This document shows, one piece after another, positions 1,127 through 43,345 of a stretch of 64,000 bases of DNA; within the stretch, counting starts at the first letter, position 1, and each line of letters starts with the position of its first letter. The translations under genes were made by a program, and so were the position numbers. The notes under the pieces were generated by a model that ran no database searches, was not told where the DNA came from, and was given only the letters and a program-made list of their open reading frames with translations. The DNA is taken from positions 489,802 to 553,801 of the forward strand of contig JAHFLL010000001.1 in the NCBI GenBank assembly GCA_023244895.1, written 5' to 3'. Origin of the DNA: Candidatus Liptonbacteria bacterium (lineage in GTDB: Bacteria > Patescibacteriota > Minisyncoccia > UBA6257 > 2-01-FULL-56-20).

Positions 1127-2902
1127 TTACGCAACTTCAGCCTGATAACAGGCTTCACAATATACTATCTCTCCGCGGTCAGGGGCATAGCTGGTTTCAA
1201 ATTTATTTTGACAAGGCTCGGCTCCATGAAAATGAATGTCCGTGTTTTGATAAGTCCCATTCTGCGACCTATTCCCAGCACACCCACAGGTCCTTTTCCA
1301 TAATTTTAAAGGGTTGAGGCGAGAGAAGCGCCTTTTATGGCGACAGTCAGAACACTTGTTTGGCAGGGGTAAATCAAACCGACGCAAGAAGGCAATTTCC
1401 GCGGGGACGAAGCGATAGGCTCGAGCGCAGGACGCGCAGGCGACCACCTCTTTTAATATATCGTCTCCTACTTCATCAATGGTTGCGGGCAGCTTCTCGC
1501 CTCTAATAGTTGCGGTGTGTTCAGAAGGAGCGCCGTCACACCACCTCCATCCCGTCTCCAATGCCCGTTCCTTAGTCAGCGGGAAATACACCTGCGCGTC
1601 CGTTTCGTTGTACCCATAAAGGGAAAAGTCATACGGCATGAACTCGCCATACTTCCAAACCCTGCCCTGCGCATCAACATAAGGATTACGTTCCATGTCC
1701 GCAATAATTTGAGTTCTCAGAGAGCGAAACTCTTCGGGTGTATATTGCTTATTTAAAATGCAATATTTTTTCTTGCGCAGACCAGAACAACCGAGAAGGT
1801 CTGCTACGTCTATACACCAAACACAATATTCAGTGTTTAGCGTGTTGCCGAGAGCGCACACATAAGAAAACTTAGCATTGTGCGTACCAGCACCTACATT
1901 CATGCACTCATAAATAAGCTCTACATTGTCACCCCACATAGTATAGTCATAAGCGTCTTTGGTATGCGCGTCCTTAATAAATTGACAGAAACGAACATTC
2001 TCCAGTCCGCGCGCCTGAAAAGAATCCTTGGCGTTTTTTGATTCATATATATAGTCTCCGGACACGTTCACGTTTTGGAAGCCATGCATAAACTTGTGCG
2101 GCACTGAACGCCAGACCTCCTCCGCTCGCGCCTGGAGCTGCAAGATACCCTCTTGCGTCCTCATACTCCGGCGCAGCGATTCTAATTCTCGGACATACTC
2201 TTCTTTAGAATGAGGCTTGTTCCAGATGTAATAACTCTTATTGCGCAGATTTGCGCAACCGAAACAATCCGTACAACCCCAAAGATTTTTAGAAAAAAAG
2301 ACATTCACGCAGTCGCTGGAATCTTCCGAAAAGAAAAGTCTTGATGACTTACGACAATTCACATCCTCATAACACAGATCCGATTCTCCTACTATCAGGA
2401 GGTCCATGGAGTCTTTTATATTAGACAATCTTCCGCCGTAAAGCACATCTTCGCAATAATCCGCATCAAAAATAAGATAGCAATTCTTAGACTCGCCCGA
2501 CTCGTTCACATATTCGCTATTAATCAGGGTGGGATGATTAGTCCCTAGTGCCACTAGGGGTGTTTCGCGGAGTAAGCCTTCTAACTGCTCAAGAAATGGT
2601 TTATGGGGATCATACTCCCGCCCATAATCTAATGGACTCCACCTGTCCGACCACCAACAAGGCGGACAATAGACCACGCATTGCTTATCGGGAGAATATG
2701 TGGAAAGAGTAATTTTTCTACAAAGTGCGCACTCCCGCTTATAGAGGTGGCGTTCGTTCCGAAACATGAGCCGCCGCTGGAGCCGACAATTGGGACAAAA
2801 CGTAGGTGGCGGCACCTTTATCCTCTCGTAGAAATTGAAATCCTCCGGCTCTATCGTGAAGTCGGATTTACAATTCTGACAGCTTTTTGTTTCTGAATTC
2901 AT
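1127..2902 (-). CDS. Cysteine-rich dual zinc-ribbon paralog, family copy A1
   Basis: The track ORF is 1127..2923 from a GTG. An in-frame ATG at 2900-2902 yields MNSETKSCQNCKSDF, which matches the 7-aa lead-in seen in the other five paralogs. The N-terminal ribbon is C-x2-C-x22-C-x2-C. A repeated C-x2-C-x-DC-x-GC-x2-LRNK-x-Y motif follows. The C-terminus reads CASCARAYRF...CSDCRHKRR...ETSYAPDRGEIVYCEACYQAEVA. Confidence 0.85.
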   Translation of the reverse strand: MNSETKSCQNCKSDFTIEPEDFNFYERIKVPPPTFCPNCRLQRRLMFRNERHLYKRECALCRKITLSTYSPDKQCVVYCPPCWWSDRWSPLDYGREYDPHKPFLEQLEGLLRETPLVALGTNHPTLINSEYVNESGESKNCYLIFDADYCEDVLYGGRLSNIKDSMDLLIVGESDLCYEDVNCRKSSRLFFSEDSSDCVNVFFSKNLWGCTDCFGCANLRNKSYYIWNKPHSKEEYVRELESLRRSMRTQEGILQLQARAEEVWRSVPHKFMHGFQNVNVSGDYIYESKNAKDSFQARGLENVRFCQFIKDAHTKDAYDYTMWGDNVELIYECMNVGAGTHNAKFSYVCALGNTLNTEYCVWCIDVADLLGCSGLRKKKYCILNKQYTPEEFRSLRTQIIADMERNPYVDAQGRVWKYGEFMPYDFSLYGYNETDAQVYFPLTKERALETGWRWCDGAPSEHTATIRGEKLPATIDEVGDDILKEVVACASCARAYRFVPAEIAFLRRFDLPLPNKCSDCRHKRRFSRLNPLKLWKRTCGCAGNRSQNGTYQNTDIHFHGAEPCQNKFETSYAPDRGEIVYCEACYQAEVA

Positions 2903-2944
2903 ATTCTGCATACTACATGCCACATTCTACCTACTGCTTTTTCC

Positions 2945-4705
2945 TTATACCACCTCCGCATTGTAGCACTGCTCGCAGTAGACTATTTCTGGCCGGTCGG
3001 GGGCATACGGGGTTCTGAATTCTATCTGGCATTTTTCAGAACCATGCACGTGAACCACCTGATTCTTATATACGCTATTTAAACTGCCCACACCCGAACA
3101 CTGACATTTTCTTGGCCACAGCCCAATCGGAGTGCGGAATTTATCTCTCTCGGAGTGTCGACACTTCGGACAAAGACGCGGGATAGGTAAACCAAATCTT
3201 TTATAGAATTCCAATTCTTTTTCCAAAATGCGATAGACTCTGGCACACCCTTCACAAGATATTATCTCCTTCACTATTGCCGAGGTTGCGTCCTCTATCG
3301 AGTCCGGCAAAGCGGAAGAAGATGTGGTCGGCTCGTATTCCCGCTCTTCAATTTCTCGCCAACCAAACCCCTGGGACAGAGATTGTTCTTCGGTAAGGGG
3401 CATGTATTCAACCGCGCAAGACTCGTTATAAGCCAAGGGGGATGTCTCGGGCGGTAAAAACTCCCCGTATCTGTATGTCTTTCCCAGGGCATCTTTATAA
3501 GGAAGACTGTTCATGCTCGCGATAATTTTATCTCTTAACTTGTAATACTCTTGCTCGCTATATTGCTTATTAAAAATACAGAACTGCTTCTTCCTTAAGC
3601 TCACGCAACCGAAAAGATTGTTGGAAGAGTGACAGCCTATGCAATACTCCAAATTACTGGAGGAGGGCCAACAATCAAAGCAAAATTTAAGATTACTCAC
3701 ATTCTCACCGCAAGAAATACTTTCATAAATCAACTCGGCATTTATCCCCCAATTAGTGTAATCCATACAGTCTTTAACGCGGTCCGAAGATATTTGGGAA
3801 TATTTTACATTTTCCGCGCTGTCTATAATCAGATAGCTTTCATTTACATTCTTGCAGTTATACAAATACTCCCCCTCGGATCTTTCGTTTCTTTGAACGT
3901 GAGCGTACTTATTGGGATATTTCAGCCAAAAATCAAGAACTGTTTTTCTTATTTTCTGAAAAGCGGCATAGGAGCTGGTGTTAAATTCTTTAATTTTTTT
4001 AGCATACGACTCCTTATCGTAAGGCTGGTTAAAAATATGGTATTTTTTATGTCTTAGGCCAACACAGCCGAAGCAATCATTGCAATCTGAACAATCTTTC
4101 ATAAACCAGCAATTGCTTAGATTATAGCTATCCACCGCGAAACGGGCTTGAAAACAGTTGCCCGTATTGTAATTCTCATAACACAACTCGTTGCTCTGGA
4201 CGTCAGAAAACTCCATGCATTCCTTGAGATATCTACCCATATTACCGTACATGCAATTTTCGGAATCCCCGAAGTCAAAACACAGATAGCAGTTCTTGGC
4301 GCGGGAAGCCTGGTCGCAGTAATCGCTGTTTTCCAAAACCTGAACCGAACGGGATGCCCAGGGCACATCCCTGGAGAGGGTTTTAAATTGTTCAAAAAAA
4401 GTTTTCGAGAAATCATATTCCCGCCCATAGTCCATGGGATCCCAGGCATCCGACCACCAATAATCCCGTTCGTATATTTTTATATTCGAACTGTCCGGAA
4501 AAGAAGAAAATATTGTCTCCCCTTTTATTGCTTCTTTCTTGCGAAAAAGGTTTTTCTCGTTCCAAAAAACTAAGCGTCTTCGAAGCCGACAACTCGGACA
4601 CCAGGTCGGGGGCGGAACCTTCACGCGTTCATAAAATTGAAAGTCCTCCGGCTCGATAACGAATTCCGATTTGCAATTTTGGCAGTTTCTTTCCTCGGCG
4701 ATCAT
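2945..4705 (-). CDS. Cysteine-rich dual zinc-ribbon paralog, family copy A2
   Basis: A 586-aa ORF. It carries the same N-terminal motif, NCQNCKSEFVIEPEDFQFYERVKVPPPTWCPSCRLRRR, and the same C-terminal motif, ...YAPDRPEIVYCEQCYNAEVV. Its start overlaps the stop of A3 (4702..4705). Confidence 0.85.
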   Translation of the reverse strand: MIAEERNCQNCKSEFVIEPEDFQFYERVKVPPPTWCPSCRLRRRLVFWNEKNLFRKKEAIKGETIFSSFPDSSNIKIYERDYWWSDAWDPMDYGREYDFSKTFFEQFKTLSRDVPWASRSVQVLENSDYCDQASRAKNCYLCFDFGDSENCMYGNMGRYLKECMEFSDVQSNELCYENYNTGNCFQARFAVDSYNLSNCWFMKDCSDCNDCFGCVGLRHKKYHIFNQPYDKESYAKKIKEFNTSSYAAFQKIRKTVLDFWLKYPNKYAHVQRNERSEGEYLYNCKNVNESYLIIDSAENVKYSQISSDRVKDCMDYTNWGINAELIYESISCGENVSNLKFCFDCWPSSSNLEYCIGCHSSNNLFGCVSLRKKQFCIFNKQYSEQEYYKLRDKIIASMNSLPYKDALGKTYRYGEFLPPETSPLAYNESCAVEYMPLTEEQSLSQGFGWREIEEREYEPTTSSSALPDSIEDATSAIVKEIISCEGCARVYRILEKELEFYKRFGLPIPRLCPKCRHSERDKFRTPIGLWPRKCQCSGVGSLNSVYKNQVVHVHGSEKCQIEFRTPYAPDRPEIVYCEQCYNAEVV

Positions 4706-6459
4706 ACTACTTCGGAATTATAACAGCTCTCACAGTAAACTATTTCCGGTCGATCGGGGGCATAGGAAGTTTCAAACTGATTAGGACATCCGCCCTGGTG
4801 GCTGTGGTTAGGCTTATCGCACATGCACCCTCGGGTCCAAAGTCTGAGCGGATTCCTTTCCGCCAATCTCTCATAGTGCCTGCAATTAGGGCAAAGCCTG
4901 GGCAGAGATAGGTTCATGCGCTTATAAAACTGTAGTTCGGCGGGGATAAGTTTGAAAGCAGTCACACAGCTTGCTTCACAGTTGGCGGTATGATGGTTCT
5001 CTTGGGCATGAAGACACCCTATCACCTCCTCTAGGATGGAGTCAGGGGTGTCTTTGATATGGTCCGGCAGGTCCTGGGGTTGTTTGGTCACGGTGTATTG
5101 CTTGGTATCTGGGTCTCTCCACTTGTATCCCTGAACTAGAGCCTGCTCTTTGGTTAAGGGGAAGTACTCCTGGGCGATGGTTTCGTTGTAGGAGAAGGGA
5201 GAGAGTTCCGGGGGGAAGAACTCCCCGTATTTATATACTCTGCCTAGTTTATCTATATAGGGCATAGTATTCATATGCTCTATGATCTGGGGGACCAGAG
5301 CTTCATACTCCTCCTTGGTGTATTGCTTGTTCAAAATACAGTACTGCTTGTTGCGCAGGGCGACGCAGGCAAAGATGTTCTGACAACCGTGAGAGGCATA
5401 ACTATACTGCACGTTATGCCCGCCCCAAACGAATATATCAAAGAAGAATTTGGTTCCATTTAATCCAGTGTCAACTGATTCATATATGAGCTCGCTTGTT
5501 TCCCCTATGCCATAGCCGTCGTAAGAATCACTCAGGCGCACTCCCCCATTGATACAGAACTTACAGTCGCGAATGCCACCCCAGAAGTCGAAGCATGCTT
5601 TACAGTTGCTGGCCTCTCCCACGTTGTCGCCGGTAGTATTTTCTACCTTATACGTATTGGCATACTTCCTTATCGCCTTAAGCTTGAGCTTCTCAAATTC
5701 CTCCTTTACTCTTAAAACATTTCTATAGCTGCCCAGGTCCAATTCCAGCAATTTCCTACCGTATTCTTCCTTGGAATAGGGCTGGTTGAAGATATGATAG
5801 GATTTACCACGCAGATTAGTACAACCAAAACAATCATTGCACCCCTTGCATTGATATAAAAAGGCGGAGTTGGTGCAATTTTCTGAATTCTGTATATAGA
5901 AAGAGTGGGCTATCTTTTCTGATGAAGAGCCCTCATATACTAACTCTGAGTCAGTAACATTAAGTGAGTCCTCCGAGTCCTTCACGTTGCCGCATTTGGA
6001 AACATAGTTGGAATCTTCTATGCCCCAACATGCATGAGAAAGGTAAGAATTTTTCGCCTCGCCGGTGTGATTGCAATAGTCGCTATTAGTAGCCCGCGAC
6101 AGGAATAATGCCGGCATCGGAACCTTGTTTAGCAGCTCGCGATATTGTCCAAAGAAGGATTTTTCAAAATCATACTCGACTCCATAAGAAAGCGGGTCCC
6201 AGGCATCCGACCACCACATATCCCTATCATAGACGTTTATGCCGCTCTCCGGAGAGAAACAGGTTATGACATCCTTATCGTTCAGAGATTTACGACGATA
6301 CAGAGACCTCTCGTTGCGCCAGCTCATTCTCCTCACGCAACGGCAGTCAGGACAAAATGTCGGCGGGGGCATCTTTATACGTTCGTAGAATACAAAATCT
6401 TCCGGTTCTATCGTAAAATCCTTTTTACAATTCTGGCAATTTCTAATTTCCGGTCCCAT
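4702..6459 (-). CDS. Cysteine-rich dual zinc-ribbon paralog, family copy A3
   Basis: A 585-aa ORF with the same architecture. A GGGAGG Shine-Dalgarno lies upstream of its ATG. It contains a roughly 365-bp tract nearly identical to paralog B1. Confidence 0.85.
   Translation of the reverse strand: MGPEIRNCQNCKKDFTIEPEDFVFYERIKMPPPTFCPDCRCVRRMSWRNERSLYRRKSLNDKDVITCFSPESGINVYDRDMWWSDAWDPLSYGVEYDFEKSFFGQYRELLNKVPMPALFLSRATNSDYCNHTGEAKNSYLSHACWGIEDSNYVSKCGNVKDSEDSLNVTDSELVYEGSSSEKIAHSFYIQNSENCTNSAFLYQCKGCNDCFGCTNLRGKSYHIFNQPYSKEEYGRKLLELDLGSYRNVLRVKEEFEKLKLKAIRKYANTYKVENTTGDNVGEASNCKACFDFWGGIRDCKFCINGGVRLSDSYDGYGIGETSELIYESVDTGLNGTKFFFDIFVWGGHNVQYSYASHGCQNIFACVALRNKQYCILNKQYTKEEYEALVPQIIEHMNTMPYIDKLGRVYKYGEFFPPELSPFSYNETIAQEYFPLTKEQALVQGYKWRDPDTKQYTVTKQPQDLPDHIKDTPDSILEEVIGCLHAQENHHTANCEASCVTAFKLIPAELQFYKRMNLSLPRLCPNCRHYERLAERNPLRLWTRGCMCDKPNHSHQGGCPNQFETSYAPDRPEIVYCESCYNSEVV
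5014..5378. repeat. Near-identical DNA tract shared with 38387..38750 (paralog A3 versus B1)
   Basis: By eye the two stretches are identical apart from a handful of SNPs. Flanking paralog DNA is alignable only at the protein level. Both copies encode ACVALRNKQYCILNKQYTKEEYEALVPQIIEHMNTMPYIDKLGRVYKYGEFFPPELSPF(S/A)YNETIAQEYFPLTKEQALVQGYKWRDPDTKQYTVTKQPQDLPDHIKDTPDSILEEVIGC. Confidence 0.8.
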
Positions 6460-6508
6460 TTATTTTTTACCTCCCGTTTTCTATATTCTATCTTCCAACT
6501 TCTAGCTT

Positions 6509-6913
6509 CTATTCTACCATCCCCCTTTTCTTTAATTCTTCGTATAAATTACCGGCTAAAGCATCATGAAAAACGTCCAGAATATACGGGTTGGATTTGG
6601 CGGCCTCACTTGTCGCTTTTACTATGCCTTCTCGAAATGCCATGCCAAGAAGATTCTCTACCTCCAACTTCGTCTCCGGCGGAGCGGACTGAGCGTATTT
6701 CGGCAAGACCGAATCTTCCGACTTAGTAGGTTCTGCTGACCGGGCTACAGGAGCTACGCCCGTATAGGACTGGATAGACTGCTTGACCAGTTCGTGCCCG
6801 GAAACACCTTTCATCTCCGGATTTTCCTGATGACGCTTCAGCTCCGCGGCTACGCCGTGCAAATCTTGCTCTTGGACAGGTACTTTGATTTCTGGGGTTA
6901 GTTGATCGGGCAT
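6509..6913 (-). CDS. Hypothetical protein, 134 aa, at the head of the A paralog array
   Basis: An ORF on the same strand 50 nt upstream of A3. It has no recognisable motif. Confidence 0.45.
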   Translation of the reverse strand: MPDQLTPEIKVPVQEQDLHGVAAELKRHQENPEMKGVSGHELVKQSIQSYTGVAPVARSAEPTKSEDSVLPKYAQSAPPETKLEVENLLGMAFREGIVKATSEAAKSNPYILDVFHDALAGNLYEELKKRGMVE

Positions 6914-6972
6914 GTTGATTAGTAGTTAGAATTTAGAAGCTAGAATATAGACGAGACATCCTAGCGCGATGT

Positions 6973-6986
6973 TTTTATTGTATAAT
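6973..6986 (+). promoter_or_regulatory. Extended -10 element (TGTATAAT) 7 nt before the ATG of the downstream gene; a leaderless transcript is possible
   Basis: The TGnTATAAT sequence at 6979-6986 sits directly upstream of the ATG at 6994. There is no Shine-Dalgarno sequence. Confidence 0.3.
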
Positions 6987-6993
6987 TTAAACT

Positions 6994-9560: not shown

Positions 9561-9584
9561 AGAGATACTTTAACTAGCGTAGGG

Positions 9585-13667: not shown

Positions 13668-14891
13668 TTATTCGTATCTTAAAGCCTCAATTGGATTCAG
13701 GCTCGCGGCGCGGCGGGCGGGATAATAACCGAAAACTATTCCTATCGCCGCGGATACACCGAAAGCCAAAAGAATGGAATTGTAGGATATCTGCGTTGCT
13801 ATGCTGGCAAACTGAGAAACTGCCAGTGCCAAAAGCCAGCCTAAAATTACGCCGAACACTCCGCCCAAAAAAGTAAGCATAACCGACTCCGCCAAAAACT
13901 GAGTGCTGATATCAGATTTTTTGGCGCCAATCGCTTTACGTAAACCGATTTCCCTGGTTCTCTCGGTAACGGTCGTAAGCATCATATTCATGATTCCGAT
14001 GCCGCCCACCAGAAGAGATATGCTGGCGATAGCGCTTAGCAGAATAGTGAAAATACTTGTCACCGAAGATGCGGTAGCTACAATATCGGACTGGTTTAAT
14101 ACATTAAAATCTTTGAGCTGGGGGTCGGAGATATGGTGGCGCGACACTAGCAAGTCCGTGACCTGTTGCTGCATGTCGGTCATAGTTTCCTGGTTTTCAG
14201 CCTGGATACTTATGGTCGTAACGTACGTATCCCCCGCTAAGAAGCGCTGAGCGGTAGAGAGTGGAACGAAAATCATATCATCCTGACTGCCGAAACCGCT
14301 GCCGCCTTTGGCCTTCGTAATGCCGACTATCTTAAAATCAACCTTATTAATTCGGATAGTCTGTCCGATTGGGATAGTGTCTGACCCGAATAAATCGTCT
14401 CGCACGGTCGGCCCGATCACGGCCACCTTCGCGATACTGCGGACGTTCTGATCGGAGATAAAGGATCCTTGATCCACTTCTACGTTCCTGACCCCGGGAT
14501 ACGCGGACACGGTTCCCACAACCTGGGTGTTGGTATTCTTGCCGGGAGAAGTCACCTGGTATCTCCTGGATATTTCCGGAGCAACCGCTTTGGCACTCGT
14601 AATGTCTTTTATGATGGCGTCCGCATCTTCCTGGGTTAAAGTTTGAGCCGAACCTCTTCCGGCGCTCACCTGTACTCCCGGCCCGCGTTGCGCGCCAGGC
14701 ATAACTAGAAGCAGATTAGAGCCTATTGACTGGATACTGGTCTCAATCGAGCTCTGCGCGCCCTGGCCGATGGAAACCATGGCGATAACTGAACCAATCC
14801 CGATTACAATACCTAAGATAGTCAGCCCGGATCGAACCTTGTTTACCGTGAGCGAGGAGTATGTTTCTTTAAACAGATCAGAAATGGTCAT
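13668..14891 (-). CDS. ABC transporter permease, MacB/FtsX family
   Basis: It has an N-terminal TM helix, a large periplasmic MacB-like core, and a C-terminal FtsX 3-TM bundle reading TREIGLRKAIGAKKSDISTQFLAESVMLTFLGGVFGVILG. Confidence 0.9.
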   Translation of the reverse strand: MTISDLFKETYSSLTVNKVRSGLTILGIVIGIGSVIAMVSIGQGAQSSIETSIQSIGSNLLLVMPGAQRGPGVQVSAGRGSAQTLTQEDADAIIKDITSAKAVAPEISRRYQVTSPGKNTNTQVVGTVSAYPGVRNVEVDQGSFISDQNVRSIAKVAVIGPTVRDDLFGSDTIPIGQTIRINKVDFKIVGITKAKGGSGFGSQDDMIFVPLSTAQRFLAGDTYVTTISIQAENQETMTDMQQQVTDLLVSRHHISDPQLKDFNVLNQSDIVATASSVTSIFTILLSAIASISLLVGGIGIMNMMLTTVTERTREIGLRKAIGAKKSDISTQFLAESVMLTFLGGVFGVILGWLLALAVSQFASIATQISYNSILLAFGVSAAIGIVFGYYPARRAASLNPIEALRYE

Positions 14892-15601
14892 GCCTTGTGA
14901 TTGTGAACTATTAGCTTACGAACGTTCTTCTTGTCTTCCAATATCATTCCGTCCTGGATGTGGATTATCCTATCGGCATGCTCCGCAACATATAGCTCAT
15001 GAGTGATTAAAACAATGGTATGCTTGTGTTCTGAGTTGAGTTCTTGGAATGTTCCCAGCACAACCTCGCCGGTCTTGGTATCTAAGTTTCCGGTTGGCTC
15101 GTCCGCTAAGATTAAGGCGGGGTTGTTGACCAGCGCCCGAGCTATCGCAACCCGCTGCATCTGGCCCCCGGAGAGCTGGTTGGATAAATGGTTCCAGCGG
15201 TCTTCCGGCAGCCCGGCTGAGGTTAACGCAGCAGCAGCACGCTCCTCTCGCTGTATAGGCGGAACTCCGGCATAAATCAAAGGTAGGGAAACGTTGCGTA
15301 AAACTGTAGAGCGAGACAGAAGATTAAAAGACTGAAATACGAAACCTATTTTGTTGCGGCGGATTTCTGCCAGCTCGTCATCGCTTAATTTAGAAATATC
15401 GTGTCCATCCAGGTGATACGAACCAGAAGTAGGCGTATCGAGCGCGCCCAAAATGTGCATCAGGGTTGACTTGCCCGAACCGGACGGACCCATTATCGCA
15501 ACAAATTCACCGCTCTTGATGCTGAAAGTTATGCCTTTCAAGACTACGGTTTCTACGTCTCCGTTTACATAAGACTTGCCGATATTTTTGCAATCAATCA
15601 T
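14888..15601 (-). CDS. ABC transporter ATP-binding protein (MacB/LolD-like)
   Basis: The Walker A box is [10 protein letters not shown], the ABC signature [15 protein letters not shown], and the Walker [12 protein letters not shown]. Confidence 0.95.
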
Positions 15602-15604
15602 GTT

Positions 15605-17404
15605 TTATCTTCCGCCTAAGCCAGGCAGCCTAATACCACCTGCAGCGGATTGGGTCGTTTGAGCCGCAGTAGAGGAAGAAATGGTTCTTACCACTACCAG
15701 GTCTCCCTCGTTCAAACCGCTCAGAATTTCGGTTGCAGATTCGTTAGATAGTCCGATTTCTATGGTCTTGCGTGTAGGCGGAACTTTAGATGCAATCCCC
15801 TGGCTGGAAGTAGATAATCCGAGCGAACTGTCTAGAATTTCCACATACTGAGATCCATTGCTGATTTTAATCGCGGAGTTAGCCACCGTTAGAATATCCT
15901 GTTTCGAGTCGGTGATTATGGAAGCAGATACGCTCATGCCTGGTTTAATTTGATCGTCGTCGGTATCAAAAGAAATCTTCACCCCATACGACACCACGCC
16001 CTGACTCACCGTGCCGATAGAATCTACCTGGGCTACTTGCCCGGTGATAGCAAGGTCCGGGAATGCATCAAAAGTCAGAGTCGCCTTTTGGCCAACTTTT
16101 ATTTTAGCGACATCCACCTCATTTAAAGAAACTTCCGCTATCTTCTTGTCGGTTATAACCGTAGCTATCACGGTCGCAGGAGAAGCAGGATCTCGCAACT
16201 CAACATTCATTTTCCCGACCACTCCGTCGAACGGAGCTCGGACATAATAGTCGGATAGATTCTCCTGCGCATCCAAAAGACTATTCTGCTTTTGCTTCAA
16301 AGATAACTGCTGGGATTGGATATCTAAAACATCCGCGCCAGCTTTAAGCTTAGCTAAAGATTCTGTTTTTTCTTTAATCGACATATCGGCGTTCGTAATA
16401 GAATCTTTGTCATTCTGGATGCTGTTCTGAATATTGAGCAGATTACCCAGATGGGTATTAGCCGTACCAGTATAGGTTTGCAAACTTGATTCATGGGAAG
16501 CAAGAAGCGCGGGCGGATGAGCGGATTGGGAATTAGTCGTTAGGGTGTCGTTCACCAAATCTAAGAATGTTTTAGTGTTTTTTATTGCCTCAGAAATCTG
16601 TTTAGTCGTTTCGTAAGTCTCCTTAATTAAGGATTCTATCGTCGCCTTGGCCGAATAGCGGCTTACATTTTTATAGTCCTGCAGATTTTTATCATAAGAT
16701 GTCCTGGCTTTTTGATAACTGGCTATCGCAAGATCCCGAAACTGATCCGCATCCGGCCGATATCCTTTTATTAAACTGTAATAAGCATCCGCGTTGCTTT
16801 GAGAATTGTTTAGAGCGCTGCCGTTCAGAATCGTGTTTAAGCCAGTAATCAAGCCCGGAATATCTATAAAAGCATTAGAAACGGTGTTAAAACCATCATC
16901 ATAGACTTTCGCCAGATCAGACAAGGCATTCTGTTTGGCCTGGTTAGCAGAAGCCAAGCTGTTCTCAGCCTGGGTCATAGAAAGAGCATCCGCCGGTTGA
17001 ACCAGTTTTTGCAAAGCCAGCTGGGCGGACTCTAAGGCAGACTGTGCGTCTCGAACCGATTTCTCGGCCGCGGTGGCATCAAGCTTTACGAGCAATTGAC
17101 CGGATTTTACAGAGTCTCCCTGCTTCACTCCTATAAACACGATGTCTCCAGAAGCTTTAGGCTTTACGTCTACCTGGCTCTCTGCGGAAACCTGACCCGT
17201 GCCGGACACAGAAGCAATCAGTGTTCCCTTCTGGACGGAGGTAAGCACATAACGAGTCTCGCTACCCGCGGCAAACATTTTTCCATATCCATAATATGCC
17301 ACCCAAACCAAAACTATAGCTATTAGTACCGATGCTATCTTATGGCTGATAGCCCACGCCCAACATTTCTTAAAATAATGCCTTATGCCCGATATTTTAT
17401 TCAT
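15605..17404 (-). CDS. Periplasmic adaptor subunit, HlyD/MacA membrane-fusion family
   Basis: It has an N-terminal TM helix, a biotinyl/lipoyl-like beta hairpin (SGDIVFIGVKQGDSVKSGQLL), and a long coiled coil. It is co-oriented with the ABC pair. Confidence 0.8.
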   Translation of the reverse strand: MNKISGIRHYFKKCWAWAISHKIASVLIAIVLVWVAYYGYGKMFAAGSETRYVLTSVQKGTLIASVSGTGQVSAESQVDVKPKASGDIVFIGVKQGDSVKSGQLLVKLDATAAEKSVRDAQSALESAQLALQKLVQPADALSMTQAENSLASANQAKQNALSDLAKVYDDGFNTVSNAFIDIPGLITGLNTILNGSALNNSQSNADAYYSLIKGYRPDADQFRDLAIASYQKARTSYDKNLQDYKNVSRYSAKATIESLIKETYETTKQISEAIKNTKTFLDLVNDTLTTNSQSAHPPALLASHESSLQTYTGTANTHLGNLLNIQNSIQNDKDSITNADMSIKEKTESLAKLKAGADVLDIQSQQLSLKQKQNSLLDAQENLSDYYVRAPFDGVVGKMNVELRDPASPATVIATVITDKKIAEVSLNEVDVAKIKVGQKATLTFDAFPDLAITGQVAQVDSIGTVSQGVVSYGVKISFDTDDDQIKPGMSVSASIITDSKQDILTVANSAIKISNGSQYVEILDSSLGLSTSSQGIASKVPPTRKTIEIGLSNESATEILSGLNEGDLVVVRTISSSTAAQTTQSAAGGIRLPGLGGR

Positions 17405-22043: not shown

Positions 22044-23891
22044 CTAAACCGTACGCTCTTTTGAAATTACCGCCAGCGCGGTCAAGACGAATAGGAGGAG
22101 ACCCGAGATTACGATAATGTCTCCCGAGAATGTACTATCTTCTGGAAGGAATCCTGCGTCAGGAAGACTGGGGGTGGTCACTAGAACATCAGCGAAGGCG
22201 TAGCCCAGCGCGGTCAAACCATTAGCCTTACCTTCTGCAGTAGCGATATTCCTGGTTGAAGCTGGAACGTTTGTCCGGCAGGTATACGCCCAGATTTCAC
22301 TCGGCTCAAGCAGATTATTACTGTTCAGATCTCCAGAGATACGAGAGACTGGAGCGCACTTGTCGTCCGTTACGACCACATCGTGCAACGCAACTACGCC
22401 CGGATTTATTACGGTATAAGCATAGGTAACATCACCTCCTCCGAATGGGAACGGGGTCAGGCGATCGGGCACCTTTATGATATTAATGAGCGGGGGCGTG
22501 AGTGGTGCGCCGACGACCACCGTTGCGATTGCGGTGGCGATCGTGGCTTGGTTGGCGCCGTCGTCGCTATGCCCAATCGCAATCGCGGTATTGGTGGTAG
22601 TGTTCGCGAGCGTTGCGGCGCAACTGTATTTCCAGTATTCGCCTGGATCAAGCTTGGCGTTGTTGTTAAGGTCGCCGGAAACAAAATTTACCGGAGCGCA
22701 CTTGTCGTCCGTTAGTGTAACATTAGTCAGAGACTGCTGACCTCCAACATTCCAAGCCGTATAGTTGTAAATGACCGAGCCGGGACCCGCAGGCAAGGCT
22801 AATGGCGTAGGAACTTTGACTATCCCAATCAGGGGTATAATCCTGCCGCCTCCGGCACCGATAAGAACTGGCGCCGCCAGAGGAACGAAGGTGTTAACAA
22901 TAGTACAGGTCCTGTTTTCGCCCGCGGCGAGCGTCACGTTCCCGCTTGAGTTACAAGCCCCGCTGAAACTTCGCACATAGGAAGTATTCGCATCTTCGCT
23001 AACCGCGTACGTGCCCGCGGCGAGAGAATAAGAAATTCCAGGCGCCGCGACTCCCGCTGCCGGGCTTCCCGACACCTCCGTACTGGAAGAATTTTTCACG
23101 TGCACGCTGAAACTTGAAGAAATCGCCGCACCGCCACCGCCGTTAACAACCAGCTTAACCACATTAAGAGTAGCGGGTAGTGACCCGCAGGTCGGTACGG
23201 TGATAGTGTTCGTATCAGTAGTGATGGTTCCACCAAACGCCAAAGACCTCCCTGTCCAAGTAGTGTTGGCGCCTACGGTTACCCCCGCGTTACTGATAAC
23301 GGTACCCGCTAATGTGGTGTTGGCGGCAAATGTTGCGGCTTGCGTTGGCGTCCAGAAAACGTCGCAAGCAGACGCTCCCGTGAGAGTAACGGTCGCACCC
23401 GCTGTGGAAGTAAGCGCACCAACTGGCCTGAAGATGTATGTTCCACTCCCGTTTAACGTAAGCGGACCTCCTATGTCCATCGCTCCCGAGCTACAATACA
23501 CTCCGGGCACGTACACGCCAGCAGTGCCATGGGTTATGTCGGTGGAGAGATTAATCGCTCCTCCCCCGAAAGTAAAAGTACATAATTGAGAAGCCAGAGC
23601 AGATAGAGCGCTCCCCTGGTCCGCGCCCGCGATAGCGTACGGAGCACCGGAGCCATAGTTTATATGTGTGCCCAAAGGAGCAACTGCTGGTCCGGTAGTG
23701 AACCCTACTCCTCCATTAATCGTGGTCCCTGCGGTAGTGTTGGTATAGGTACTACCCAGCACGCCATAAGCTGCCGCCGCTCCCAGAGATGGGGTTGTGG
23801 CCGCCAGCGCGGCAATTGGCCCAGCAAAGCCGAGCACGAATACCACGGTTAATATGGCTACTATTATTGTATTTCTACTAGGCTTTTTCAT
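22044..23891 (-). CDS. Large surface protein with a C-terminal LPDAG-type cell-wall sorting signal
   Basis: A 615-aa protein with a signal peptide. It has Thr/Gly/Ala-rich beta-rich repeats and two copies of a DUF11-like module (DDKCAPV...SGDLN.N..L(D/E)P.E.W.Y.C). The C-terminus reads SLPDAG, then 11 aa, then a hydrophobic stretch IIVISGLLLFVLTALAVIS, then KERTV. Confidence 0.7.
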   Translation of the reverse strand: MKKPSRNTIIVAILTVVFVLGFAGPIAALAATTPSLGAAAAYGVLGSTYTNTTAGTTINGGVGFTTGPAVAPLGTHINYGSGAPYAIAGADQGSALSALASQLCTFTFGGGAINLSTDITHGTAGVYVPGVYCSSGAMDIGGPLTLNGSGTYIFRPVGALTSTAGATVTLTGASACDVFWTPTQAATFAANTTLAGTVISNAGVTVGANTTWTGRSLAFGGTITTDTNTITVPTCGSLPATLNVVKLVVNGGGGAAISSSFSVHVKNSSSTEVSGSPAAGVAAPGISYSLAAGTYAVSEDANTSYVRSFSGACNSSGNVTLAAGENRTCTIVNTFVPLAAPVLIGAGGGRIIPLIGIVKVPTPLALPAGPGSVIYNYTAWNVGGQQSLTNVTLTDDKCAPVNFVSGDLNNNAKLDPGEYWKYSCAATLANTTTNTAIAIGHSDDGANQATIATAIATVVVGAPLTPPLINIIKVPDRLTPFPFGGGDVTYAYTVINPGVVALHDVVVTDDKCAPVSRISGDLNSNNLLEPSEIWAYTCRTNVPASTRNIATAEGKANGLTALGYAFADVLVTTPSLPDAGFLPEDSTFSGDIIVISGLLLFVLTALAVISKERTV

Positions 23892-37158: not shown

Positions 37159-37563
37159 CTATCTTTTAAGTAGGCTGGAATGATAAACGTTCGGTTCAAA
37201 AGATTTCATAACCTTCACCTCCGGATGCCAATCAAACTCATCTAAGTGGGATCGAAGAGAATCTGCCAGCTGGACTTGGTCGTAGCCCAAAGCGATAACT
37301 TCCGGACGATGCTGCCTCACCACTCCCCAAGTTTCTATTTCCGCGTCCCCTATCACCACCTGGTCCACCTCGTCTTCGTCCAACAAGTGCTGGAACCTTT
37401 CTTCTAGATTCATTTCCGGTAAATGACCCTTTAAATGTTCAATCACATGGTCCTGCGCCACAACGGCGATCAAGTACTGACCCTGATTTTTAGCTTCTTT
37501 TAAAAACTCGCGATGCCCGCGATGTATACCGTCAAATGTTCCAAACACCATTACCTTACGCAT
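37159..37563 (-). CDS. Cytidylyltransferase-like HxGH nucleotidyltransferase (RibL/TagD/NMNAT-like small nucleotidyltransferase)
   Basis: VFGTFDGIHRGHREFLKEAK carries the (T/H)xGH motif of the nucleotidylyltransferase alpha/beta fold. At 134 aa its length is typical of archaeal-type FAD synthase or glycerol-3-phosphate cytidylyltransferase. Confidence 0.65.
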   Translation of the reverse strand: MRKVMVFGTFDGIHRGHREFLKEAKNQGQYLIAVVAQDHVIEHLKGHLPEMNLEERFQHLLDEDEVDQVVIGDAEIETWGVVRQHRPEVIALGYDQVQLADSLRSHLDEFDWHPEVKVMKSFEPNVYHSSLLKR

Positions 37564-37595
37564 TGCAGAATGAATTATGAATTAAGAATTGGGAA

Positions 37596-38039: not shown

Positions 38040-38116
38040 GTTAAATAGTTGGAATTAGGATTTATTTAGAAATTAGAGCAATTAGAAATTTACTTTCTAC
38101 GCTCTACTCTGTGTCT

Positions 38117-39835
38117 TCAAGCCACTTCCGCATTATAACACTGCTCGCAGTAAACCATCTCTGGCCGGTCGGGCGCGTAACTGGTTTCAAACTCATTGGA
38201 GCAACCCGGCTTCATACACTTGCGATGCCAGAGCTTATAGGGATTTTTAAGCTTGAGGCGTTCGTAGTGCCTACAATTAGGACATAATCTAGGAATAGGT
38301 AATCCTATCTTCTTGTAAAACCCCAGCTCTTGGGGTATCAGCTTGAAAGCCGACGTGCATTGATGATTGCATCTTGCCCCATGCCCACACCCTATCACCT
38401 CCTCTAGAATAGAGTCGGGGGTGTCTTTGATGTGGTCCGGCAGGTCCTGGGGTTGTTTGGTCACTGTGTATTGCTTGGTATCTGGGTCTCTCCACTTGTA
38501 TCCCTGAACTAGAGCCTGCTCTTTGGTTAAGGGGAAGTACTCCTGGGCGATGGTTTCATTGTAGGCGAAGGGAGAGAGTTCCGGGGGGAAGAACTCCCCG
38601 TATTTATATACTCTGCCTAGTTTATCTATATAGGGCATAGTATTCATATGCTCTATGATCTGGGGGACCAGAGCTTCATACTCCTCCTTGGTGTATTGCT
38701 TGTTCAAAATACAGTACTGCTTGTTGCGCAGGGCGACGCAGGCAAAAACGTTTGAAGAGGCGTTGCAAAAGTCGGTAAATTCAACATTGGCCAGGTTGCC
38801 AATAGAGTTGGTGGAAAATTTTATGCCAGTGCTTTCTCTTCCTCCGGTCGCATATTCGTAGGATAAATCAGAATAAATGAGTCCGCTTATATCCATACTA
38901 TCTTTTAGATAGTATACGCGCATGGCGTTCTTGACGTTTTCAAGCTCCCAGCCCTCAAAACAGTTATGGCAATTTTTGGCGTTAGAAATAGCATCTCCAT
39001 CGGAATTAGCGCACTTTATGACGTCCGCCCAACGATGTAGACAGTTTTCCATCATCACCCTAAATTCAGTTTTAAATTTATCTAGATTAGAATGGCTTCC
39101 AAAATCGAATTCTTCCGACACTTTTTTACGATATTCTTCCTTGGTATATTGCTTATTGCGTATCACATACCTCTTATTCCTTAGGTTGTGAGACATTACG
39201 CAGTCCTGGCAATTCACGCAGTCAAACAGAAACCAGGAATCCACACAGTCAGTAGCGCGAAAAATAAAATGGCAGTTATTACATCTACCCGAATATGCGT
39301 CCCCGTAACACATATTGAGGCTCTCTGCATTTAAACAATCATAAGCATGAACAGAATTATCTACTGCCCGAGAATAATAAACATCTTCACAGTTAACGAC
39401 CGAGTACCCTAAGTAAACATTCTTAGATTCTCCGGTCATGTTGGAATAGCTGACGTTCTCGGAGTTATGGCGTTGCCACAGAGCCATGTGCGGTACCGCT
39501 CTGCGCAATTCCACAAACTGCTCAAAAAATGTCTTGGAAAAATCATACTCCCGACCATACTCTATCGCTTCCCACCCATCCGACCACCAGCAATCATTGC
39601 AATACACGACCAACTCCTTGTCTGGGGAACAGAAGGTAATAGTGCTCTTCCCACAAAGCGCGCATGCCCCCTTATACAGAGAGCGCTCATTGCGAAAGCA
39701 GATCCTTCTCTGTAGTCGGCAATCCGGACACCAGGTTGGAGGCGGAACCTTAATACGCTCATAGAAACCAAAATCATCCGGCTCTATTACAAATGCGCTG
39801 TGACAACTTTGGCATGTCTTGGTTTCCGGTTCCAT
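38117..39835 (-). CDS. Cysteine-rich dual zinc-ribbon paralog, family copy B1
   Basis: A 572-aa ORF reading MEPETKTCQSCHSAFVIEPDDFGFYERIKVPPPTWCPDCRLQRR...YAPDRPEMVYCEQCYNAEVA. It contains the near-identical tract shared with A3. Confidence 0.85.
   Translation of the reverse strand: MEPETKTCQSCHSAFVIEPDDFGFYERIKVPPPTWCPDCRLQRRICFRNERSLYKGACALCGKSTITFCSPDKELVVYCNDCWWSDGWEAIEYGREYDFSKTFFEQFVELRRAVPHMALWQRHNSENVSYSNMTGESKNVYLGYSVVNCEDVYYSRAVDNSVHAYDCLNAESLNMCYGDAYSGRCNNCHFIFRATDCVDSWFLFDCVNCQDCVMSHNLRNKRYVIRNKQYTKEEYRKKVSEEFDFGSHSNLDKFKTEFRVMMENCLHRWADVIKCANSDGDAISNAKNCHNCFEGWELENVKNAMRVYYLKDSMDISGLIYSDLSYEYATGGRESTGIKFSTNSIGNLANVEFTDFCNASSNVFACVALRNKQYCILNKQYTKEEYEALVPQIIEHMNTMPYIDKLGRVYKYGEFFPPELSPFAYNETIAQEYFPLTKEQALVQGYKWRDPDTKQYTVTKQPQDLPDHIKDTPDSILEEVIGCGHGARCNHQCTSAFKLIPQELGFYKKIGLPIPRLCPNCRHYERLKLKNPYKLWHRKCMKPGCSNEFETSYAPDRPEMVYCEQCYNAEVA
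38387..38750. repeat. Near-identical DNA tract shared with 5014..5378 (paralog B1 versus A3)
   Basis: See 5014..5378. Confidence 0.8.
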
Positions 39836-39873
39836 TTTTTTACTTTTTACATTCTACCTACCACCTTCCATCT

Positions 39874-41598
39874 TCACGCTACTTCCGCATTGTAGCATTG
39901 CTCGCAGTAGACGACCTCTGTCCCGTCGGGACGGTAGCTGGACCTAAACATATTGGGGCACCTGCCCTCGGGATGGTTGGTATGGCTCGCGGTATTTTGA
40001 TACACCTTATAGTCACATCTGCATTGCTGAGGGGCGGAAAGGCGATTCGGACCGCGGGCGGTCATGCGTCGGTCGTGACGACAATCGGGACACATCCTGG
40101 GAATTGGAATATTCAAACGCTTATAGAATTGCAACTCTGGCGGAATAATACGATAGTTTTTATCGCATTTTACGCAAGAAAATATCTCCCTACTCACATC
40201 CGCCACGTTAAGGTCTCCTATGGCGTCCGGAACGTTATCCCATTTCAAAGTTTCTTTGCCATAGGTACCGCGGGGATATTCTTCCCAGCCGAATCCCAGC
40301 GCCTCCGCCCTCTCTTTCGTAAGCGGAAACTGTTCTTGAGCAACAGTTTCGTTATATCCGAAGGGACCGAGTGAAGATGGGAAAAATTCTCCATATTCTC
40401 CGCTCACCTTCATGTCCCCCACTATCTTATCTCGCAAAGATTCATATTCATCTTTGGAATATTGCTTATTCAAAATGCAATAATCCTTTTTGCGCAAACC
40501 GGCGGAACCCAGGCAGTGGTTGGAATTAAAACAATTAAGGGCATACTCCATAAAGGTAGAACTCCAGGCCTGCGCGCAGGACACACAGTTAGACACGTCT
40601 ATGCCGGTATTAATGGAATTATAGATTGTGCTTGCGTTTCTGCCCGCGGTGCTCACGTCCACGCAATCCTTAGCGTTGCGCCAAACATGCTCTCCGTAAG
40701 CGCAATCTTCCGCTTCATAAGAATGGAAACACTCTCGGCAGTTTTTCGCGTCGGATATGTAGTTCCCGGATGAGCCCGGCGCGTTTACAATCTCCGCGTA
40801 TTTTCTGGGCTGGGTTTTAATAAATTCTAAAAACTTGGCGCGCATAGCCTCTACCCCGCTTGCGGTATCAAGCCGTGCCTCCGTTATAAACCCTTCATAT
40901 TCTTCTTTGCTTAAGGGCTTATTGAAGACATAGTATTGGCGATTACGCAGATTGACGCATCCAATACAGTCACTGCAACCCCTACAGTCGTACAGAAAAT
41001 AGGAGTTTCTGCTGTCATAACAAACTTTACTATAGACAAGCTGATAACAGTTGTAGCAATCGTCACTTTCATAAGAAAGTTCGGTCTGGTGCGAGAAAGA
41101 AAGGTCCAGCGAGTCCCGACATTGCTGTACCCAATAGGAATGAATACAACCTTCATTGTTGGAGGACTCTACCAGCATATAGCAATCCTTATTATCCGCG
41201 GAAATATTCACGTACTCCGAGTTCACGCTACGCACGTAAATCAGCGCCACCTTGGGCACTTTTTTATAAATCTCATTAACCTGCTCTAGAAATGGCCGGC
41301 TTGGGTCATAATCCTGACCGTATTCTGTCGCGTCCCAGTCATCTTTAAACCAGCACTCATAGCACCAAACCGGATATGGTTTATTGGGACTATACATGGA
41401 AACCACCTCCCGCTTGCACTTATCGCAGGCGCGCTTATAGAAGACACGCTCGTTACGAAAAGCTAGTCTGCGCTGGGCGCGACACAAGGGACACATTTTC
41501 GGCAAAGATACGCCGATTTTTTCGTAAAACGTAAAATCATCCGGCTCTATCGTAAAGTCCTTTTTGCAGCTCTGGCAGGTTTTAGCTTCCGGTCCCAT
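39874..41598 (-). CDS. Cysteine-rich dual zinc-ribbon paralog, family copy B2
   Basis: A 574-aa ORF reading MGPEAKTCQSCKKDFTIEPDDFTFYEKIGVSLPKMCPLCRAQRR...YRPDGTEVVYCEQCYNAEVA. Confidence 0.85.
   Translation of the reverse strand: MGPEAKTCQSCKKDFTIEPDDFTFYEKIGVSLPKMCPLCRAQRRLAFRNERVFYKRACDKCKREVVSMYSPNKPYPVWCYECWFKDDWDATEYGQDYDPSRPFLEQVNEIYKKVPKVALIYVRSVNSEYVNISADNKDCYMLVESSNNEGCIHSYWVQQCRDSLDLSFSHQTELSYESDDCYNCYQLVYSKVCYDSRNSYFLYDCRGCSDCIGCVNLRNRQYYVFNKPLSKEEYEGFITEARLDTASGVEAMRAKFLEFIKTQPRKYAEIVNAPGSSGNYISDAKNCRECFHSYEAEDCAYGEHVWRNAKDCVDVSTAGRNASTIYNSINTGIDVSNCVSCAQAWSSTFMEYALNCFNSNHCLGSAGLRKKDYCILNKQYSKDEYESLRDKIVGDMKVSGEYGEFFPSSLGPFGYNETVAQEQFPLTKERAEALGFGWEEYPRGTYGKETLKWDNVPDAIGDLNVADVSREIFSCVKCDKNYRIIPPELQFYKRLNIPIPRMCPDCRHDRRMTARGPNRLSAPQQCRCDYKVYQNTASHTNHPEGRCPNMFRSSYRPDGTEVVYCEQCYNAEVA
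41526..41583. repeat. 58-nt identical tract shared with about 43271..43328 (N-terminal coding ends of B2 and B3)
   Basis: aaaacgtaaaatcatccggctctatcgtaaagtcctttttgcagctctggcaggtttt is identical in both. It encodes KTCQSCKKDFTIEPDDFTFY. Confidence 0.7.
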
Positions 41599-41641
41599 TT
41601 CTTTTTTTTACTTCCTACGTTTTGCCTACCACTTTTTATCT

Positions 41642-43345
41642 TTACGCCACTTCTTGATTATAACAACTCTCGCAATACACTATTTCCGGTCGGCCGGGGG
41701 CATAGCTGGTTTCAAACTCATTGGGGCAGTCCGACTTCATGCATTTGCGGTGCCAGAGCCTGCGGGGATTGCGCATTTTAAAACGCTCTGTTCTGCGACA
41801 GGGATAACAATATTCCGGAACCGGGATACCCATTTTGCGATAGATCATAAGTTCCGTAGGGTGTAAACGGAAAGCACCCACGCAAAGCGGGTTCCTTGTT
41901 TTTGCTTCTTCATCTTCTTGTGTTCGACAACCGATAGTTTGGCTTAGGATATCATCCGAAGCCTCAGCTACGGTGGACGGCAATTGGTCTGGAGTCATAG
42001 TGACTTTATGGTTGGTAGCCGGCTTGTCGTACCAACTATAACCCTTTTGAATTGCCTCTTCTCTAGTCAACGGAAAGTAGTCCTGCGCCATAGATTCGTT
42101 ATAGGCGAACGGGGAGACATCCGGAGGATAGTATTCGCCCCACTCCCCGGTTTTTCTCATATGCTCTACGATCTTCTTTTTTAAATCCAAATACTCCTCC
42201 TTGGAATATTGTTTATTCAAAATGCAATACTGTTTTTGTTTCAATCCAAAACAGCCGAAACAATTATTAGCACCAAAACACATGTCGCAATAACAGGAAT
42301 CAGTTATGGTGCTAAAGCAACTGCGAGCGACGATGGTGCGATGCGGGGTATCCACCCCTTGCGTCTCGTAGGATAGTTCGGCATTTATTATTTCCGTGCA
42401 ATCCCTACAGTCCTCAGTGTTTCGCCAAGCATCCTGCATATAGGCCACATCCTTATTGTCGCGACAGTTAAAACAATAATTCGCTCTTTGAGTGTTCTCC
42501 AGGTAGTCTCCGGAAGATTCCTGAGCCTGGGTACCGTGATAGTTTTTTACCGGCTTAGTTAATCTAAAGCCAGCGAATTTTTTAAGTTGCTCCCGGATAG
42601 ACAATCTTGTCCGGGTAAACTCTTTCTTTCTTTGCTCGTATTCCTCTTTAGAAAGCTGTTCGTTAAACCAACAATATTGCTTATTTCTTAATCCCCAACA
42701 GCCGAGACAATCGACGCAACCTCGACAGTCATCCGAAAAATAGATGTTTACACAGTCGGCGCAATTGCTTATCCAGGCGCAATTGGAACATTTTGCCAAG
42801 TTAATGCTCTCGTAGCAGAGTTCGGAGCTCTCTATCATGTAGCAATCAGAACACATAAAGCACTTGCGCTGGTTCCAACTGCCATACATGCACTTTTCGC
42901 TGGTATCGCTCGTGACCAGCATGTAGCAGTCCTTGTTATCTTGGGACTGATTTGTGTATTCACTATTTACGCTATTCGCATTAACCAAAGCAAGATGAGG
43001 AACTACTCGGCGCAATTCTTCGTATTGCTCAAAAAACGGGCGGTTGAAATCAAAGTTCCGCCCATAAACGGATGCGTCAAAAGCGTCCGATTTCCAATAG
43101 TCCTGCTTGTAGACCGGAAATGAGACGTCTGGTCGGTAAATGGAGATTATGTCCTCCCCGGTAGCATCGCACTTGCGCTTATAAAAGTTGTACTCGTTTC
43201 TATCCGAAAGCCGCCTAATATATCTGCACTCCGGGCAAAGAGTCGGAGGCGGCACATCTATTTTTTGATAAAACGTAAAATCATCCGGCTCTATCGTAAA
43301 GTCCTTTTTGCAGCTCTGGCAGGTTTTTACTTGAGATTCGGTCAT
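41642..43345 (-). CDS. Cysteine-rich dual zinc-ribbon paralog, family copy B3
   Basis: A 567-aa ORF reading MTESQVKTCQSCKKDFTIEPDDFTFYQKIDVPPPTLCPECRYIRR...YAPGRPEIVYCESCYNQEVA. Its start overlaps the NUDIX stop (ATGA). Confidence 0.85.
   Translation of the reverse strand: MTESQVKTCQSCKKDFTIEPDDFTFYQKIDVPPPTLCPECRYIRRLSDRNEYNFYKRKCDATGEDIISIYRPDVSFPVYKQDYWKSDAFDASVYGRNFDFNRPFFEQYEELRRVVPHLALVNANSVNSEYTNQSQDNKDCYMLVTSDTSEKCMYGSWNQRKCFMCSDCYMIESSELCYESINLAKCSNCAWISNCADCVNIYFSDDCRGCVDCLGCWGLRNKQYCWFNEQLSKEEYEQRKKEFTRTRLSIREQLKKFAGFRLTKPVKNYHGTQAQESSGDYLENTQRANYCFNCRDNKDVAYMQDAWRNTEDCRDCTEIINAELSYETQGVDTPHRTIVARSCFSTITDSCYCDMCFGANNCFGCFGLKQKQYCILNKQYSKEEYLDLKKKIVEHMRKTGEWGEYYPPDVSPFAYNESMAQDYFPLTREEAIQKGYSWYDKPATNHKVTMTPDQLPSTVAEASDDILSQTIGCRTQEDEEAKTRNPLCVGAFRLHPTELMIYRKMGIPVPEYCYPCRRTERFKMRNPRRLWHRKCMKSDCPNEFETSYAPGRPEIVYCESCYNQEVA

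Follow-up and report, generated by a model that had tools for sequence, protein, structure and literature searches.

Coupling proteins of type IV secretion systems (T4SS), such as VirD4, TrwB and TraD, have adjacent substrates, among them relaxases and the Xanthomonas X-Tfe effectors that are recognised via a conserved C-terminal domain. Paralogous β-helix families kept in reduced genomes are known from the chlamydial Pmp proteins, which are secreted autotransporters with signal peptides. The Patescibacteria (Candidate Phyla Radiation, CPR) account for much of bacterial diversity, live on other cells and have genomes below 1 Mb, and to our knowledge the mechanisms by which they interact with their hosts are mostly unknown. 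Here we analyse a 64,000-nt stretch (the window) of one of them, a Candidatus Liptonbacteria bacterium (contig JAHFLL010000001.1, assembly GCA_023244895.1), which carries six large cysteine-rich genes in two tandem triplets. They belong to a family that spans thousands of members across the clade yet is unnamed, and whose arrays are linked to genes for VirD4/TrwB-like ATPases. A survey of 2,918 Patescibacteria genomes found 5,713 homologs of VirD4-like type IV coupling proteins (T4CPs), about two per genome, of which only 148 lay near virB4, and raises the possibility that the T4CPs of this group have been exapted for other functions (PMC12102498).

Our data suggest, with a probability of roughly 40%, that the family works with orphan hexameric ATPases of the VirD4/TrwB type as their repertoire of clients or adaptors. 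The linkage of arrays to ATPase genes suggests an undescribed molecular machine and offers the orphan VirD4-like motors a possible family of partners; from gene linkage and domain sharing we infer physical interaction, the direction of action and the identity of the ligand. The original prediction, made from the letters of the window, had proposed the six genes as a candidate for an undescribed system, a proposal that is strengthened here, and had missed the internal duplications, the β-solenoid and the linkage to VirD4-like ATPases.

Six paralogs and the anatomy of their products

The six open reading frames (ORFs) lie on the minus strand, tightly packed or overlapping, where the original prediction had placed them, and the absence of internal stops from all six rules out a reading as pseudogenes. 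Their coordinates, with the domains of paralog 1, are as follows.

1127-2902, minus strand: paralog 1, 591 aa from the ATG at 2902 (alternative GTG at 2923, 598 aa)
2753-2902, minus strand: N1 finger of paralog 1
2606-2752, minus strand: N2 finger of paralog 1, four of four cysteines kept
2168-2605, minus strand: solenoid repeat A of paralog 1
1703-2167, minus strand: solenoid repeat B of paralog 1
1451-1702, minus strand: linker of paralog 1
1298-1450, minus strand: C1 finger of paralog 1
1130-1297, minus strand: C2 finger of paralog 1
2945-4705, minus strand: paralog 2, 586 aa, N2 finger without its cysteines
4702-6459, minus strand: paralog 3, 585 aa, N2 finger degenerate, 4-bp overlap with paralog 2
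38117-39835, minus strand: paralog 4, 572 aa, N2 finger intact
39874-41598, minus strand: paralog 5, 574 aa, orthogroup of 63-66% identity in four other loci (L005, L007, L008, L034)
41642-43345, minus strand: paralog 6, 567 aa, most divergent of the six

The proteins are thus 567-591 aa long, or up to 598 aa via the GTG start of the public annotation of paralog 1 (P0001), to which the ATG appears preferable as the better fit to the N-terminus of the family (M-x6-C). Apart from the overlap of paralogs 3 and 2, adjacent paralogs are 38-43 bp apart, and a tblastn search of the window returned no seventh copy. The six copies take up ~10.5 kb, which, provided that the 840-kb contig is the complete chromosome, amounts to ~1.2% of the genome. 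The family profile matches the paralogs and their relatives at E ~1e-240 to 1e-284, which puts their relatedness far beyond chance, and pairwise identities among the six are 38-45%, with the exception of paralogs 3 and 4 (56%). Mean identity is 65% over the first 50 columns of the six-paralog alignment and 65% over the last 52; the core reaches 31%, and columns 371-470 reach 54%. The proposed layout of conserved ends around a variable core holds, and the terminal motifs described with it recur in all six proteins.

Profile-profile comparison of sub-alignments revealed internal duplication. The modules run in the order N1 (a zf_Tbcl-like treble clef), N2 (CxxC-x17-CxxC), repeat A, repeat B, a highly conserved linker of ~80 aa (YGEFFPPELSPFAYNET..QEYFPLT), C1 and C2. 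The N-terminal finger (residues 1-50) recurs at ~485-535 (hhalign, probability 98.7%), C1 and C2 together being a second copy of both finger types, and in the core a module of ~145-155 aa stands twice in tandem (probability 99.9%, 136 aligned columns), both repeats terminating in '...GC.(N/G)LRNK.Y.I.NK.YSKEEY'. Across 123 diverse members, all cysteines of N1, C1 and C2 are kept in 122-123 and the two N1 CxxC pairs are invariant (123/123). All four N2 cysteines are present in just 29 members (lost in 76%), and in the window the N2 spacing is exact in paralogs 1, 4 and 5 and degenerate in 2, 3 and 6. Repeat A ends in a CxxCxxCxxC cluster (cysteine frequencies 0.75-0.98) and repeat B in three conserved cysteines. 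Across the family, N1, the linker, C1 and C2 are the best conserved modules (0.70-0.79) and the two solenoid repeats the least conserved (0.52-0.55). Each of the six proteins contains 31-39 cysteines and only 9-15 CxxC pairs; the earlier count of about 30 cysteines was close, the accompanying claim that all stand in CxxC-type spacings was not, and the 'dual zinc ribbon' gives way to four finger modules plus two cysteine clusters at the solenoid ends. Hydrophobic or transmembrane-like segments and signal peptides were absent from all six.

An AlphaFold2 model of paralog 1 built on the 123-sequence alignment is confident (predicted local distance difference test, pLDDT, 87.7; predicted template modelling score, pTM, 0.89), least so in the cysteine-rich repeat ends, and predicts a doubled β-solenoid whose two ends carry pseudo-symmetric pairs of fingers. 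A Foldseek search, proposed with the original prediction, gave no match at E < 0.001. The best explanation of these features is that the six products are cytoplasmic multi-zinc proteins in which three Cys4 fingers are invariant, a fourth is optional and a cysteine cluster caps each repeat. Zinc binding is suggested by the likeness to CxxC-x17-CxxC domains, which in small proteins of Methanosarcina mazei bind zinc as measured by inductively coupled plasma mass spectrometry (PMC12704099). The C1 region is consistently basic (+3 to +9); the overall isoelectric point (pI) of 5.6-6.0 is not strongly acidic, which rules out a DNA mimic.

A fold of this kind, a β-solenoid flanked by pseudo-symmetric pairs of fingers, might also be structural or metal-handling, forming a finger-joined filament (cytoskeletal or a conduit), buffering or storing zinc, or holding an Fe-S centre at the conserved CxxCxxCxxC that ends repeat A; a CutA1 gene in the neighbourhood of eight loci would suit such a role. 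We regard this as very unlikely, given that no similarity to bactofilins or match to any Fe-S family was found, that a defined heteropolymer is hard to reconcile with dozens of subfamilies lacking any fixed set or order, and that CutA1, like the DnaJ and DnaK genes that also recur near the arrays, may be a neighbour by plain synteny.

VirD4/TrwB-like ATPases beside the arrays

At least 579 loci of the family turned up in a scan limited to one genome per species, and the neighbourhood and copy counts below rest on 79 of them that were kept. When their neighbours were clustered, an ATPase family was by far the commonest (42 genes at 27 loci, 41 of the 42 on the strand of the family genes). An ATPase was present within the fetched stretch at 31 of the 79 loci, compared with ~7% expected at random (binomial P = 6e-16), and 52 of 53 ATPase genes were co-oriented with the family genes at a median gap of 148 bp. 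The linkage grows with array size, from 4 of 27 single-copy loci through 10 of 23 with two copies to 17 of 29 with three or more. Where F is a family gene and S and L are two classes of soluble ATPase, arrays are typically bracketed as S-Fn-L or L-Fn-S-Fm, and a separate DUF8128-like membrane protein is encoded near several of these cassettes.

The S ATPases are ~500 aa long and the L ATPases ~700-790 aa, the latter with a zf_Tbcl_2 finger and a low-complexity tail. Most consensus positions of both classes show ≥70% identity, and L is 70-90% identical across Paceibacterota and Nomurabacteria, where databases call it just 'CxxC-x17-CxxC domain-containing protein' or 'type IV secretion system DNA-binding domain-containing protein'. 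The L-type finger is a bona fide zf_Tbcl_2 (43-54 bits, cutoff 27) and homologous to the N2 finger of the family (hhalign 93.7%, E = 2e-7). Hidden Markov models (HMMs) of the family fingers found no other proteins with such fingers in 84 loci. Directly upstream of the S ATPase at three loci (L005:2392-2943, L062:11712-12302 and L068:220-735) stands a protein of ~172-191 aa with a single transmembrane (TM) segment and a HEPN-like R-x4-H motif ('AHRxRNxLVHxPGF'). The small ORF upstream of S was rejected as a cassette member, the ORFs in this position being heterogeneous and only 3 of 11 related.

In the window itself, triplet 1 stands between two further genes.

1-1035, minus strand: 5' part (345 codons) of a 794-aa gene for a TM-DUF8128-VirD4/TrwB-like ATPase, cut by the left window edge
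6509-6913, minus strand: 134-aa ORF without a family match, directly upstream of triplet 1

The ATPase gene adjoins paralog 1, 91 bp downstream (full gene at L001:4889-7273 in the public copy of the contig), and its product combines one N-terminal TM helix with DUF8128, T4SS-DNA_transf, TrwB_AAD_bind, TraG-D_C and DUF87. A related genome (L082) repeats the whole unit of small ORF, three family genes and DUF8128-ATPase. The small ORF keeps its position there as a 131-aa gene, and also at L069 (46% identity), and it may be the first gene of the triplet 1 operon; the best promoter-like site near it is at 7065-7036, although the promoter and terminator scans were uninformative. The 794-aa protein also aligns nearly end to end with phrog_5156 (E = 1.7e-83) and has full-length homologs of 21-24% identity in the Bacillus phages G (gp156), CP-51, Shanette and JL, the functions of which are unknown.

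If the family does partner these motors, its finger-bearing ends and the 80-aa linker would dock onto conserved machinery, either the ATPase itself or a ligand that the family shares with the L-type finger, possibly nucleic acid, and what sets one paralog apart from another in specificity would be the variable double solenoid. Under this model an exapted coupling-protein motor would be served by paralogs that can replace one another as its clients or adaptors, either as cargo handed to a translocon (e.g. for host-cell delivery) or as specificity factors that choose the target of the motor. It is doubtful, though conceivable, that the family, S, the finger-bearing L and the DUF8128 membrane module constitute one undescribed Paceibacteria machine in which the motors load the solenoid repertoire, notably as cargo delivered to the host; were cargo indeed passed into host cells, the family would be the main effector set of episymbiotic Parcubacteria.

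Several points weigh against a partnership with the motors. The linkage is not universal, triplet 2 having no adjoining ATPase and about half of the long loci having none at all, and inheritance of gene order, not selection, may account for part of it. Neither the S nor the L ATPases are anchored in the membrane, no T4SS channel genes occur within the window, and proteins packed with Cys4 fingers are awkward translocation substrates. The finger HMMs of the family also fail to retrieve the ATPase finger at E = 1e-3, which makes the relationship a distant one.

Distribution, evolution and surroundings of the family

By word-indexed search the family has at least 4,477 relatives, the best 120 of which are all full-length (572-635 aa). 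They are called 'hypothetical protein' at source, with one exception ('Zn ribbon nucleic-acid-binding protein'), and their named sources are Liptonbacteria, Sungbacteria, Jorgensenbacteria and 'Patescibacteria group'. An exhaustive search of 1.84 billion cluster representatives gave 5,303 clusters (at 50% identity) at E ≤ 1e-3 and 2,320 at E ≤ 1e-30. The curated names among the 79 loci are Parcubacteria/Paceibacteria-type groups; many 'Saccharibacteria' labels and a single 'Gammaproteobacteria' label all belong to third-party (TPA_asm) metagenome-assembled genomes and may be imprecise. No member was found in 50,697 phage genomes or in IMG/VR, ruling out a phage or mobile origin.

Tandem amplification, noted in the original prediction, is a habit of the whole family, with one copy at 27 loci, two at 26, three at 13 and four to nine at 15, always co-oriented. 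Its two further proposals, a duplicated locus and rapid diversification, do not hold. Other genomes contain relatives of paralogs 1, 2, 3 and 5 at 54-78% identity, compared with 37-43% for paralogs in the same genome, and 95% of 131 array genes have a closer match in another genome than within their own array (medians 58% and 44%). These nearer external relatives imply that the duplications are old and each lineage is under purifying selection, and they rule out a recent lineage-specific expansion. The 176 sequences fall into 65 clusters at 50% identity and their order within arrays is not conserved, which also rules out a fixed set of orthologous subunits in a conserved order. The triplets are not copies of each other; only paralogs 3 and 4 stand out, because of a tract of gene conversion, and a second, shorter tract links paralogs 5 and 6.

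5014-5379, minus-strand paralog 3: copy of the gene-conversion tract, end of repeat B plus conserved linker
38387-38752, minus-strand paralog 4: partner copy of that tract
41516-41583 and 43260-43327, minus-strand paralogs 5 and 6: 68-bp tract, 97% identical, coding for the N1 finger

The first tract has 97.5% nucleotide identity over 366 bp between the two loci, and recent gene conversion thus continues in the family, which is an ancient, bushy multigene family shaped by purifying selection and occasional gene conversion and is not rapidly diversifying. The strongest terminator-like hairpin of both scans (CGGGGGGAAGAACTCCCCG; plus strand, 5209-5227 and 38582-38600) lies inside the conversion tract, antisense to the coding sequence, and probably arises as a side effect of the conserved 'GEFFPP' codons. 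One relative, P0264 (731 aa), bears a GNAT acetyltransferase domain at its N-terminus and lacks several of the finger cysteines; it is probably a one-off fusion or else an artefact of gene calling, and as the sole case it disqualifies Rosetta-stone fusions as a clue to function.

The original prediction had likened the layout to that of polymorphic effector, immunity or recognition families, and one could picture anti-phage sensors that recognise invaders with their variable solenoids and signal through their conserved ends to a HerA/FtsK-type ATPase, or polymorphic effectors. The variable core between conserved ends, the commonness of tandem arrays and the shuffling of segments between loci by gene conversion would fit, as would the matches of the ATPases to mad8/HerA in PADLOC, which are weak and reflect generic P-loop similarity only, and the HEPN-like small TM protein adjoining S at three loci. 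We nevertheless consider this decidedly unlikely. The paralogs are old, with orthologs conserved at 54-78%. The family proteins have no match in PADLOC-DB 2.0, no toxin or enzyme domain was matched in the six proteins, and no small immunity-sized ORFs lie between the paralog genes. The variable part is moreover central and the C-terminus most conserved, which does not resemble polymorphic toxin/immunity systems. Unlike patchy defence islands, the family is near-ubiquitous in one clade, its ATPases are 70-90% identical and its surroundings are those of housekeeping and core-genome genes.

Triplet 2 lies next to dnaE and genes of nucleotide-salvage type, namely a NUDIX gene (43342-43788) that overlaps the start of the triplet, a DUF4406-like gene and, after the latter, the following gene.

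37159-37563, minus strand: cytidylyltransferase/FAD-synthetase-like gene, ~134 aa, just downstream of triplet 2

Homologs of this cytidylyltransferase-like gene stand inside ATPase-bracketed cassettes at six loci (L013, L024, L043, L047, L049 and L079). Single copies of the family sit among housekeeping and DNA-metabolism genes, for example beside RecA and FtsK (L083) or RuvB, PolA, Fpg and RuvC (L084). Such surroundings, together with the four finger modules of each protein, the basic C1 and the fact that VirD4/TrwB and CedD-like motors are DNA translocases, would be expected if the proteins were stand-alone binders of nucleic acid, active in DNA uptake, repair, recombination or RNA metabolism and regulation, with fingers that bind, a solenoid that scaffolds and a proximity to the ATPases that reflects a shared pathway and no complex. 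This appears unlikely to us, as the overall pI is 5.6-6.0, no known DNA- or RNA-binding domain or fold was matched, DNA-metabolism neighbours are frequent by chance in genomes below 1 Mb, and the retention of six to nine diverged copies would be left unexplained.

Other genes that recur beside the arrays, whether for functional reasons or by plain synteny, are DnaJ (9 loci), CutA1 (8), DnaK (7), an RluA-type pseudouridine synthase (6), ribosomal protein L19 (5) and a PaaX-like regulator (4). Elsewhere in the window, 13668-17404 and 22044-23891 hold an exporter operon (MacB/FtsX permease, ABC ATPase and HlyD-like protein) and a 615-aa protein with Ice_binding-like and DUF7507 domains, which is probably a surface protein.

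Comparison with known systems

In keeping with the original prediction, which could name no family, no full-length curated match was found in Pfam, NCBIfam, PADLOC or PHROGs. PF13451 (zf_Tbcl) scores 14.6-17.3 bits against residues 5-44 of paralogs 2, 4 and 5 (gathering cutoff 24), and residues 51-83 of paralog 4 score 19.3 and 18.9 bits with PF23477 (zf_Tbcl_2) and TIGR04272, again below threshold (cutoffs 27 and 36). The only PHROGs match is phrog_15341 (function unknown), over ~100 aa of repeat A; it aligns to residues 126-223 of paralog 6 at E = 1.6e-9 and to paralog 5 at E = 6.5e-3. Sequence profiles of the PDB gave no matches for the full-length profile at E ≤ 10 and noise only for the C-terminal module, and no paper was found on the family, on the function of PF13451 or PF23477, or on DUF8128.

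The fingers share with zf_Tbcl (PF13451) and zf_Tbcl_2 (PF23477, TIGR04272) the cysteine spacing and flanks, C..C…F.I…D..FY…P..C..CR in the one case and C..C-x17-C..C with VYC..C in the other. Unlike the small stand-alone proteins of those families, including the ones of Methanosarcina mazei, they are terminal modules of a ~590-aa protein and match below the cutoffs. Among the closest known systems to the core are left-handed β-helices and ice-binding β-solenoids (PDB 3ULT, LpxA/LpxD/GlmU and γ-carbonic anhydrase); neither the hexapeptide-repeat signature of the left-handed β-helix nor close structural similarity to it was found, and a pair of treble clefs at both ends of a duplicated, cysteine-capped β-solenoid is without a solved relative.

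Zinc-finger β-solenoid arrays bracketed by two soluble VirD4-like ATPases match no described system. The closest parallel for the motors is the T4CP systems, from which these loci differ in that the S and L ATPases are soluble and L carries a zinc finger, that no relaxase, T4SS channel or immunity genes are nearby and that the putative clients, whose role is predicted, have no enzymatic domain. A coupling-protein ATPase gene adjoins triplet 1 and none adjoins triplet 2. These loci and the T4CP systems both place a VirD4/TrwB-type NTPase, whose signature combines TraG-D_C with an all-alpha domain, beside genes for products with conserved terminal modules and variable bodies. The chlamydial Pmp proteins have no sequence relationship to the family, which is without signal peptide or TM segment and bears Cys4 fingers of a cytoplasmic type; what the two share is a large set of diverged β-solenoid paralogs, partly in tandem, in a minimal and host-dependent genome.

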